A stretch of DNA of 64,000 bases. Origin: Desulfobacterales bacterium. GTDB lineage: Bacteria; Desulfobacterota; Desulfobacteria; Desulfobacterales; JAABRJ01. The position numbers and the translations under genes are program-made. The stretch spans positions 15,353 to 79,352 of the forward strand of contig JAWOJK010000038.1 of assembly GCA_046481705.1 (NCBI GenBank), in the 5' to 3' direction. The notes beneath the pieces were generated by a model. It had not been told where the DNA came from and made no database searches. It was given only the letters and a program-made list of their open reading frames with translations. Shown here piece after piece: positions 60,990-62,974 of the stretch; the stretch's first letter is position 1; every line of letters begins with the position of its first letter.

Positions 60990-61196
60990 AATTGTTGTTT
61001 CCTGCCTTGGTGTCAATTAACCTAAAAGTATAGAGAAATTATGAGACTATGTCAAACAAGAAACGCCCCGAATTGCGGCCAGCGCCAGAGGGCCGCTCGT
61101 CATGGTGTTCTTTTTGGCGCGACAGGCACCGGTCACCGCTGGGTCCGGCGCAACCCAAGAATCAGTGGCAATTCAGCGACATGAAAGCCCCTTTGC

Positions 61197-61700
61197 ATGA
61201 AGGTTGACCGCCACGTTGTGCTCTTCAACCCCGAGGTCCACTGGAACACCGGCAATATCGGTCGCACCTGCCTCGGCGTCGGTGCCACACTGCACTTGAT
61301 CGAACCGTTGGGTTTTTCCCTGACAAGCAAGGCGGTCAGGAGGGCCGGGCTGGATTACTGGCAGCGGGTCGACCTCAAGGTCTGGGAAAACTGGGAGGCC
61401 TTTGGCGCCAGCCATAAACCGCTCCCCGTGGAAATGGCCCTGCTGAGCAAAAACGGATCCCGACCCTTCTGGGAAATGGCCCCAGCCAGACGTCAATTTC
61501 TGATTTTCGGTTCGGAAAGCACCGGCCTCCCGGCATCCATCCGCAGCCGCTACCCGCAAAGCACCTACCACATTCCGATTTCGCGCCAGATCCGCTGCCT
61601 GAACCTGTCCACGGCCGTCGGCATCGTTTTGTACGAAAGCCTGCGGGCAAGCGGCGTTGTACATGAATGGCGGCCGATCGATGACGGGGCCGACGGCTGA
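61197..61700 (+). CDS. trmL: SpoU/TrmL-type tRNA 2'-O-methyltransferase
   Basis: Motifs NTGNIGRTC, RRAGLDYW, FGSESTGLP and LNLSTAVGIVLYE. Confidence 0.8.
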   Translation: MKVDRHVVLFNPEVHWNTGNIGRTCLGVGATLHLIEPLGFSLTSKAVRRAGLDYWQRVDLKVWENWEAFGASHKPLPVEMALLSKNGSRPFWEMAPARRQFLIFGSESTGLPASIRSRYPQSTYHIPISRQIRCLNLSTAVGIVLYESLRASGVVHEWRPIDDGADG

Positions 61701-61796
61701 CGGCCTGATAGGCATGCCCGGCGACACCCGGCCGGGGCAGTAAGCGGGGGTGCAGAGGGTGACGTTTTTCTGACTACGGGTTTTTCTTTTGCGAAA

Positions 61797-61960
61797 ATTG
61801 ATGGACCGGTAAAAAGTCAAAATTTGAGATGGCGGTGAAAAAAGGCCAAGTTCAAGGCGCGCAAATCTCGAGGAGTGAGGCGTACTTAAGGTACGCCGCA
61901 GCGACTTCGAGATGCAGCGCAACGCAGAAATTGGACTTTTTACGCCGCCATCAAAATTGG
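61797..61960. repeat. rod-like palindromic repeat, copy 1 (palindrome core 61828-61952)
   Basis: Outer stem GATGGCGGTGAAAAAAGGCCAA / TTGGACTTTTTACGCCGCCATC. The inner ~80 nt is nearly identical to copy 2. Confidence 0.75.
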
Positions 61961-62201
61961 CTGTTTGCAGAACGTCTGGTGGGAGGATTTGAGCGCAGAG
62001 ACGAGCAGGCTGATGTTTGACGGGATAGTGGCTTACAAAGGCTCGCCGTTCCGGCGGCCCCACCCGCAGCACGGTCGCCGGGAACCGACAGCGCCACTGA
62101 AAGCAGTTGTCGGGGGGAAGCACCAGCACCCGGTTGTGGAGTGTGTAAAATCAGTCTTGCCCGGGACGGTAACCGCCGGCTTGGTCTTCACCCAATCAAA
62201 T

Positions 62202-62360
62202 ATTGATGAACCGGTTAAAAGTCAAAATCCAGACAGTTTCGTAAAATGGCCAAGTTCAAGGCGCGCAAATCTCGAGGAGTGAGGCGTACTTATGTACGCC
62301 GCAGCGACTTCAAGATGCGGCGCAACGCAGAAATTGGCCATTTTACGGAACTGTCGAATA
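62202..62360. repeat. rod-like palindromic repeat, copy 2 (palindrome core 62232-62355)
   Basis: Outer stem GACAGTTTCGTAAAATGGCCAA / TTGGCCATTTTACGGAACTGTC (22 bp, one G-U). Ends 27 nt after the atpF stop. Confidence 0.75.
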
Positions 62361-62386
62361 TTAGCGGCCGGCGGGGACAGCGGCGT

Positions 62387-62974
62387 TTACTTGACCGTCA
62401 GGCTGGACATAAAGTCTTGGACCATCCGCTTTTTATCTGCATCGCTGATGGTCTTCGGCAGTTTTTCCAGAGCCAGGTCGATCGCGGCATCCACCAGTTC
62501 GCTGCGGAACTTCTGCCGGGCCCTGAGAATGTGGCCTTCGATCCTGCGCTGGGATTCTTGCATCAAGTTGCGGCCCTGCTGACGGGCCTCCTCGATGATG
62601 CGCTCTTTGCTGTTGACCCCCTGGCTGATGATGCGCTCCTTCACCAGGTCCAGCTGGGCGCCGCTTTCCTCCAGTTGACGGGTGGCCTCTTTGGCCTGCT
62701 CTGCGGCTTCCAGCCGCTGCTCCTCGATCCGTTTGATTTCGAGGGAGAGTTCATACTTGCGGCCATGCAAAAAGTCCTTTAAGGGCTGGCGGGAAAATTT
62801 GACGATGACAAAGGCCAGCAAGCCGAAATTGAACCAGAGCATTACCAGATCGTAAGTCTTGCGCCACCCACCGTTTCCCTCGGCTGCCAGCGCGGCACCC
62901 GCCGGCACAAGCAGGCAGAGGCAGACCAGAACCGCAAGCCGGGCCCATCGGTATCGTGCATAACGGCGCGTCAT
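62387..62974 (-). CDS. atpF: F-type ATP synthase subunit b
   Basis: Single N-terminal TM segment followed by a long charged coiled coil. Overlaps the atpF' stop by 4 nt. Confidence 0.75.
   Translation of the reverse strand: MTRRYARYRWARLAVLVCLCLLVPAGAALAAEGNGGWRKTYDLVMLWFNFGLLAFVIVKFSRQPLKDFLHGRKYELSLEIKRIEEQRLEAAEQAKEATRQLEESGAQLDLVKERIISQGVNSKERIIEEARQQGRNLMQESQRRIEGHILRARQKFRSELVDAAIDLALEKLPKTISDADKKRMVQDFMSSLTVK

Follow-up and report, generated by a model that had tools for sequence, protein, structure and literature searches.

The window, that is, the whole 64-kb stretch (64,000 nucleotides) of a Desulfobacterales bacterium contig that has been analysed, carries two copies of a hairpin element in the spacer between the convergent genes trmL and atpF. 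Both copies are located on the + strand, 404 nt apart, in sense orientation with respect to trmL and antisense to atpF. The features of this region are the following:

61197-61700, + strand: SpoU/TrmL-type methyltransferase gene (trmL), the upstream neighbour, outside the element; open reading frame whose orthologue in relatives has PF00588 SpoU_methylase
61794-61799, + strand: left target-site duplication of copy 1, AAAATT, identical at 6/6 positions to 61953-61958
61800-61818, + strand: left terminal inverted repeat of copy 1 (GATGGACCGGTAAAAAGTC), a conserved box that is an inverted repeat of the hairpin 3' arm
61819-61827, + strand: spacer of copy 1 between left terminal repeat and hairpin (AAAATTTGA), read from the sequence
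61828-61952, + strand: rod hairpin of copy 1, 125 nt, 123.2 bits with covariance model R1; internal arm L at 61828-61849, conserved asymmetric core at about 61850-61930 and 3' arm R at 61931-61952
61934-61952, + strand: right terminal inverted repeat of copy 1, the last 19 nt of the 3' arm
61953-61958, + strand: right target-site duplication of copy 1, AAAATT, read from the sequence
61959-62198, no strand: original trmL-atpF intergenic DNA separating the two insertions, in partial alignment with the element-free spacer of a relative (L204)
62199-62204, + strand: left target-site duplication of copy 2, AATATT, read from the sequence
62205-62223, + strand: left terminal inverted repeat of copy 2 (GATGAACCGGTTAAAAGTC), located by repeat and pattern search
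62224-62231, + strand: spacer of copy 2 (AAAATCCA), read from the sequence
62232-62355, + strand: rod hairpin of copy 2, 124 nt, 119.3 bits with R1; internal arm L at 62232-62253 and 3' arm R at 62334-62355
62357-62362, + strand: right target-site duplication of copy 2, AATATT, a 6/6 match at offset 1
62387-62974, - strand: ATP synthase F0 subunit b gene (atpF), the downstream neighbour, outside the element; open reading frame, an identical protein from a Desulfobacterales MAG having PF00430

The two rods had been described in a preliminary sequence-only reading and are real, with the covariance-model scores given above. Also confirmed was the description of a nearly identical interior enclosed by differing, self-complementary outer arms: the interior of about 90 nt differs by one indel and one substitution at the apex plus two substitutions elsewhere, and the 22-nt outer arms differ at 8 positions with complementarity kept, including a single G-U pair in copy 2. 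When folded as RNA, the + strand reached -71.7 kcal/mol in copy 1 and -70.4 kcal/mol in copy 2 (z = -7.5 and -8.8, with 0/200 shuffles as good), and the - strand was weaker, at -59.6 and -64.6 kcal/mol, respectively. The distances to the neighbouring genes have been corrected. Copy 2 ends 31 nt, and not 27 nt, from the atpF stop codon (62387-62389), and the 100 nt or so proposed between the trmL stop codon and copy 1 applies to the left end, 99 nt after it, and not to the hairpin, which starts 127 nt after it. A third copy was found neither by pattern nor by covariance-model searches of the 64-kb window.

The element has no coding capacity, in agreement with the first description. The unit has only about 160 bp, the apex differs by the 1-nt indel, and the ORFs running through copy 1 and copy 2 do not use the same frame. 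A 318-aa ORF on the - strand (window 61173-62129), which crosses copy 1 and runs antisense to trmL, is almost certainly spurious. A promoter scan predicted no sigma-70-like promoter in the window copies, and a simple intrinsic-terminator scan made no call at them; the inner hairpin nonetheless has conserved A5 and U5 runs (GUAAAAAG ... CUUUUUAC).

Upstream of each hairpin in the window there is a conserved box of 27-30 nt (ATTGATGRACCGGTWAAAAGTCAAAAT). The box of copy 1 and the hairpin 3' arm form an inverted repeat with 74% complementarity over 34 nt. The units are larger than the hairpins, because 6-bp direct repeats bound the conserved upstream box together with the hairpin, and the complete units extend from 61794 to 61958 (copy 1) and from 62199 to 62362 (copy 2). 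In copy 2 a single extra G (62356) separates the hairpin end from the right repeat. The general layout is a 6-bp repeat, a 19-bp left end (GATGRACCGGTWAAAAGTC; family consensus GATGRNNYCGYAAAAAGTC), a spacer of 8-10 nt, the hairpin of about 125 nt, whose 3' arm is the inverted right end, and again the 6-bp repeat. There are therefore parts that were absent from the earlier description: the left end, the duplications and a third arm, the internal arm, which is a direct repeat of the left end and is almost perfectly complementary to the 3' arm. The 3' arm of copy 2 matches its left end at only 11/19 positions, so this copy may be immobile now.

The family to which these copies belong was collected by exact-pattern scans with the apical stem of the hairpin, applied to the uncultivated viral contigs of IMG/VR and to genomes represented by one per species. 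The viral scan gave 15 loci (L001-L015) with several copies per contig, and the genome scan gave at least 118 loci in at least 79 assemblies, counted by accession prefix. The element is thus not confined to this locus, a possibility that had been raised at first. Nearly all of the genome matches listed were from Desulfobacterota, chiefly sulfate reducers and syntrophs, the carriers including Syntrophaceae, Smithella, Syntrophus, Desulfobacteraceae, Desulfosarcina, Desulfatirhabdium, Geobacteraceae and Desulfuromonadales, and a few of the loci listed stood under other labels (Nitrospirae, Gemmatimonadota, Lachnospiraceae and Saccharimonadia). The viral contigs correspond to tailed phages, since they encode the large terminase subunit, the major head protein, the head protease, DnaB and RecT. 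The phage genomes concerned (for example 3300037044_000250) are related to each other, and the number of copies in 50 kb reaches five or more in some. A looser second viral scan (AGGCGNGC...GAGGAGTGAGG) produced only chance matches (L016-L038), and a viral scan with a degenerate end motif produced mostly chance matches and no full-length insertion sequence.

Covariance model R1 was built from alignment A2, with 46 diverse members, and recovered about 130 full-length copies in the collected loci, some of them lacking the seed pattern. Tandem arrays were present among these matches (L063, 5123-5379; L156, 2283-2671). Most of the copy statistics given below refer to 122 non-redundant copies, and those on pairing and covariation to 108 copies.

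The census looked for flanking duplications and terminal inverted repeats, and both were found. A recognisable left end was present in 47 of the 122 non-redundant copies. When the 6-mer preceding the left end was compared with the 6-mer following the 3' arm, at least 5 of 6 positions agreed in 35 of these 47 copies (24 perfect), versus 2/47 at a control offset. In the complete set, an exact 6-mer repeat was found in 31/122 copies versus 1-4/122 at control offsets, with a peak 33-34 nt upstream of the hairpin. The duplication is A/T-rich, approximately AANNTT, and sometimes has 7 nt. The left end and the reverse complement of the 3' arm were identical at a median of 14/19 positions in the 47 copies, and the internal arm at a median of 16/19. 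This match between the two ends, together with the flanking 6-mer repeat, identifies the unit as one with terminal inverted repeats and target-site duplication. About half of the copies have neither a recognisable left end nor a duplication and fold as well as the others; either age or a different mode of origin may account for these hairpin-only copies.

Other small elements, of 133-312 bp and with unrelated interiors, share these 19-bp ends and 6-7-bp duplications and are located at the following positions:

L054, 2868-3000 and 7407-7582: elements with shared ends
L099, 7140-7272: element with shared ends
L100, 1052-1213: element with shared ends
L124, 147-455 and 463-774: elements with shared ends

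The interiors of these elements are hairpin-forming as well, with GTCATTCCGGCGAAAGCCGGAAT present in one type. These elements and the hairpin element make up a superfamily with common ends, which is the pattern that would be expected of one transposase serving several non-autonomous elements. In L124 (1-780) three elements are arranged head to tail, each separated by ATGGCTT, a sign that one target was regenerated and used repeatedly. Junctions of this type, in which a right end, 6 nt and a left end follow each other, were observed in L067, L099 and L130.

Reduced sites, interpreted as signs of insertion and decay, were found at some loci. A 28-bp remnant at about 6380-6440 of L145 (- strand) consists of the left end fused to the last 9 nt of the right end and is flanked by AGAGTT. 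Phage L014 (about 880-915) has only an 18-nt solo arm where the homologous phage L007 carries an insertion, and excising from L007 the element and one copy of the duplication gives back '...GCA TAA AGGAGG...ATG', a normal junction of two genes with a stop codon, a ribosome-binding site and a start codon. A search for an autonomous partner in about 0.94 Mb of loci revealed by self-BLAST no multicopy segment of 500 bp or more besides orthologous regions, and the same loci held no pairs of ends 600-3500 bp apart with duplications and no transposase gene bounded by the ends. As no transposase gene of this kind was found, mobilisation in trans is inferred.

The convergent atpF/trmL arrangement is kept in relatives with 80-82% AtpF identity, where the spacer has 266-338 nt versus 686 nt in the window, and no R1 match was found in the atpF/trmL spacers of these relatives. 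Because the spacers of relatives are short and element-free, and one of them, that of L204, can be partly aligned with the DNA separating the window copies, the copies are considered separate insertions and not a local duplication. In a metagenome relative (L208, 3635-4000), a phage-integrase-family gene lies directly downstream of atpF in place of trmL.

The position of one copy behind each of two convergent genes, noted at first, is not supported as a functional link: both copies have the same orientation, and elsewhere the neighbours are unrelated genes. The association with trmL and atpF is incidental, and the element is not a device specific to either gene. In other loci its commonest position is between co-directional genes, in antisense orientation, with 29 antisense and 6 sense copies in this context (p = 1e-4; gene calls were crude, based on the longest ORF). 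With the same crude calls, the antisense:sense split was 19:5 in genomes and 9:1 in phages. The gene on the 3' side of the element often ends 0-5 nt from the hairpin, because the junction reads T/GAY on the strand of the gene (the slash marks the junction). The supply of stop codons was considered as the origin of the orientation bias and discarded, as both ends give T/GAY and an early TAA and the two orientations are equivalent in this respect. Since the majority inside operons is antisense, host mRNAs carry the weaker-folding strand.

The core is the best-conserved part of the element, part of the conservation at the apex being forced by the search pattern that was used to collect the family. 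The apical stem is the same in copies found only with the model, where both partners of a pair are occasionally changed, for example in L112 (GGCCUAC/GUAGGUC). The core is asymmetric and not a simple palindrome: below the near-invariant 7-bp apical stem, the 5' strand is GAGGAGUGA and the 3' strand is GCARYGACGA, from which two tandem G-A motifs with two pairs between them are predicted. The covariation noticed between the two window copies also holds at the scale of the family. In the 108-copy alignment, 95.2% of the cells form standard pairs, versus 33-47% when the partners were slid by 1-3 columns; 32 of 39 pairs are changed on both sides, values that were reached in 0/500 shuffles, and RNAalifold was in agreement. 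Subfamilies with different outer arms (GACGGCTTCG..., GATGGCAAAG..., CAGGCTGCTC...) carry the same core.

Compensating changes were also found between orthologous copies. Between L112 and L135 one pair of the apical stem is changed on both sides (C-G in L112, G-C in L135), and two compensating double changes distinguish the orthologous hairpin-only copies L137 and L155, which come from two Smithella species and have 88.8% identity in their flanks. Gene conversion from arm to arm of a palindrome could mimic such changes without selection on RNA.

The preference for one strand was general. The + strand is the better-folding one in 113/122 copies (median difference, 8 kcal/mol); there are 208 G-U pairs versus 42 A-C pairs; and the four pairs beside the U-run are intact on the + strand in 87/108 copies versus 42/108 on the - strand. 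The load of G-U pairs is equal in all gene contexts and would therefore have been inherited from source copies and not tuned locally, and for the same reason local selection for G-U in the antisense operon copies has been discarded. A mutation bias linked to transcription or to replication has also been discarded as the origin of the G-U excess, on the reasoning that both predict the opposite sign. Because pairing is kept by compensating changes and one strand is favoured, the core most likely acts as a single-stranded nucleic acid, and this is probably RNA.

Taken with the terminal repeats, the duplications, the dispersal and the absence from relatives, each of the two window copies is very probably the insertion of a non-autonomous transposon of about 160 bp with terminal inverted repeats, that is, a MITE. 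The first reading had left three options (a 3'-end hairpin, a MITE-like element or a protein-binding site), and it is the MITE-like one that the same four lines of evidence support. In the mechanism proposed, a transposase supplied in trans would recognise the left end and the 3' arm, making cuts staggered by 6-7 bp, and the same enzyme would move the other small elements with common ends and different interiors. Head-to-tail arrays would arise by insertion beside existing ends or into the same target. Two independent insertions would have landed in the convergent trmL/atpF spacer, where their effect on the two genes would be, at most, the addition of strong hairpins with U-runs to both 3' regions. 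A plausible role of the core is that of a U-tract hairpin or of a protein-binding site on the tandem G-A pairs. The + strand RNA (A-run, hairpin, U-run) would be the stronger, active form, and could be selected against when in sense orientation inside operons.

The family is apparently undescribed. No Rfam family was detected on either hairpin at E values up to 10, and blastn gave no match in plasmids, in GenBank phages or in 5,426 E. coli genomes. None of the papers searched contained the core or end sequences, and a search for MITEs of Desulfobacterota gave only Chunjie. A match to a known family, which had been foreseen as an alternative, was thus absent from Rfam, the E. coli genomes, plasmids, phage records and the literature. 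To our knowledge, almost no small repeats have been described so far in the anaerobes of Desulfobacterota.

Bacterial MITEs such as Correia/CREE of Neisseria, RUP and Nezha are likewise small, non-coding and multicopy, with terminal inverted repeats and target-site duplication; they form a long RNA hairpin and lie between genes or at gene ends, where they can supply stop codons. The target duplication of Correia elements is TA, whereas that of the present element has 6-7 bp, and the extra internal copy of the end gives it three arms. MITEs normally conserve their ends rather than the interior; in this element, by contrast, it is the interior that is most conserved across orders of the phylum, folding is strand-specific and the orientation relative to genes is biased. 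The three arms of the foldback and the deep conservation of a structured, strand-specific core are unusual for a MITE.

Within Desulfobacterota, the Chunjie element of Geobacter uraniireducens Rf4 has 178-235 bp, 21-bp terminal inverted repeats and 9-bp direct repeats (PMC3184786), and it is described as a MITE that is found within operons without destroying them and that has very stable predicted RNA hairpins (PMC3184786, PMC10969869). The present element has about 160 bp, 19-bp ends and 6-7-bp repeats, and is set apart by those published features of Chunjie. As size, terminal inverted repeats and direct-repeat length all differ from the features available from these publications, the two are regarded as different families.

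The ERIC/IRU repeats of enterobacteria resemble the hairpin in being imperfect palindromes (about 125-127 nt) that lie between genes and whose central part is conserved, but their hosts belong to a different phylum and the element has no similarity to any E. coli genome searched. As for the source of the transposase, the ISDol1 group, an unclassified group of insertion sequences from Desulfococcus oleovorans, also a host of Desulfobacterota, has direct repeats of 6-7 bp and may be taken as a candidate, as a lead only. A literature search for ISDol1 found nothing on this element.

A different explanation of the same data is that the hairpin is a structured RNA selected by the host, such as a multicopy small RNA or an element acting in cis at 3' ends or between cistrons (a terminator or an mRNA stabiliser), and that its transposon features are secondary or coincidental. 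The strong covariation and the strand-specific folding are in its favour, as are the A-run, hairpin and U-run layout in the arms, the hairpin-only copies that fold as well as the rest, and the compensating changes between orthologues (two in L137/L155 and one pair in L112/L135). This explanation is nevertheless improbable, since the duplication has high significance and elements with unrelated cargo have these ends too. The element is moreover missing at the same locus in relatives and present in multiple copies in phage genomes; operon copies are mostly antisense, leaving host mRNAs with the weaker strand; and there is neither an Rfam match nor a predicted promoter.

Still less probable is that the copies are palindromes of the REP/REPIN type, moved through single-stranded DNA by a single-copy RAYT, an IS200-like tyrosine transposase, although this would explain a hairpin that is strand-specific. 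REP and REPIN sequences are also intergenic, hairpin-forming palindromes present in many copies without duplications, as the hairpin-only copies are, and one strand of the element folds better. However, the copies with a left end have 19-bp terminal inverted repeats and 6-7-bp duplications, and transposition of single strands by HUH enzymes does not produce target duplications. The unit size and the conservation pattern are also different, as the hairpin has 125 nt with a conserved centre and does not consist of two REPs of 20-40 nt with a variable spacer. Moreover, should genes be oriented with the replication fork, the strand that folds would not be the lagging-strand template, as deduced from the orientation counts.

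A local tandem duplication of the trmL-atpF terminator region, suggested by two same-strand copies 404 nt apart with none elsewhere in the 64-kb window, is almost certainly wrong, given that the outer arms and flanking 6-mers differ between the copies, that they are separated by ordinary spacer DNA which a relative also has and that the census placed well over 100 copies in other genomes and phages.

Several other candidates have been discarded. A hammerhead ribozyme was suggested by the family motif CUGAGGA, but the window copies (CUCGAGGA) break the invariant U and Rfam gave no match. The left end showed no acceptable hexamers, by eye or by scan, for a sigma-70 or sigma-54 promoter of its own. 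Conservative integration by a tyrosine recombinase does not agree with a 6-mer that is identical on both sides of each copy and differs between copies. The attC sites of integrons have conserved outer RYYYAAC ... GTTRRRY motifs, a variable centre and an arrangement in cassette arrays, whereas the ends of this element are GATGG.../...CCATC, its centre is conserved and its copies lie between housekeeping genes.

With the window copies interpreted as MITE insertions, the trmL/atpF spacer holds two insertions and not a locus-specific regulatory device, and a phylum-wide mobile family is added to environmentally important anaerobes. The copies in phages suggest how the element may spread from one lineage to another. 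The element also has practical consequences, as its copies break assemblies (several are at contig ends) and create spurious ORFs in annotation. In addition, it offers a natural test of the conservation of transposon cargo, the cargo being a structure of 125 nt that shows compensating changes, prefers one strand and is oriented in operons with a bias of 5 to 1. A further reading, tentative and on balance unlikely, is that the core is a functional strand-specific RNA or single-stranded DNA module, formed by the two tandem G-A motifs under the invariant 7-bp stem GGAGUGAGGCGUAC-loop-GUACGCC, which the miniature transposon would carry across Desulfobacterota and their phages. The putative partner of such a module could be a protein, a nuclease or the transposase. 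If this reading were true, the element would be a bacterial analogue of an RNA-bearing SINE and not an inert MITE.

The stem-loop module GGAGUGAGGCGUAC-loop-GUACGCC was also observed in different scaffolds in the Lachnospiraceae MAG (L115, 6030-6132; L150, 2899-3001) and in the Saccharimonadia MAG (L131, 5463-5584). Two scaffold types are distinguished among these non-Desulfobacterota matches: an 80-nt hairpin within a larger unit (about 175 bp) whose inverted ends have 22 nt (CTTAGGAGCTGTCATGAAATAA), and a 110-nt rod in sense orientation just upstream of a VirB4-like gene. These matches could be due to chance, as 1-2 random matches are expected for the search pattern. Truncated copies of the element, formed by the right arm and about 20 nt of the core, were found in L117 (2374), L118 (5796), L129 (5478), L130 (5880) and L085 (6982). 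The break is at nearly the same point in all of them, right after GCAACGCAG, and some adjoin a full copy, with a 6-mer in common at the junction.
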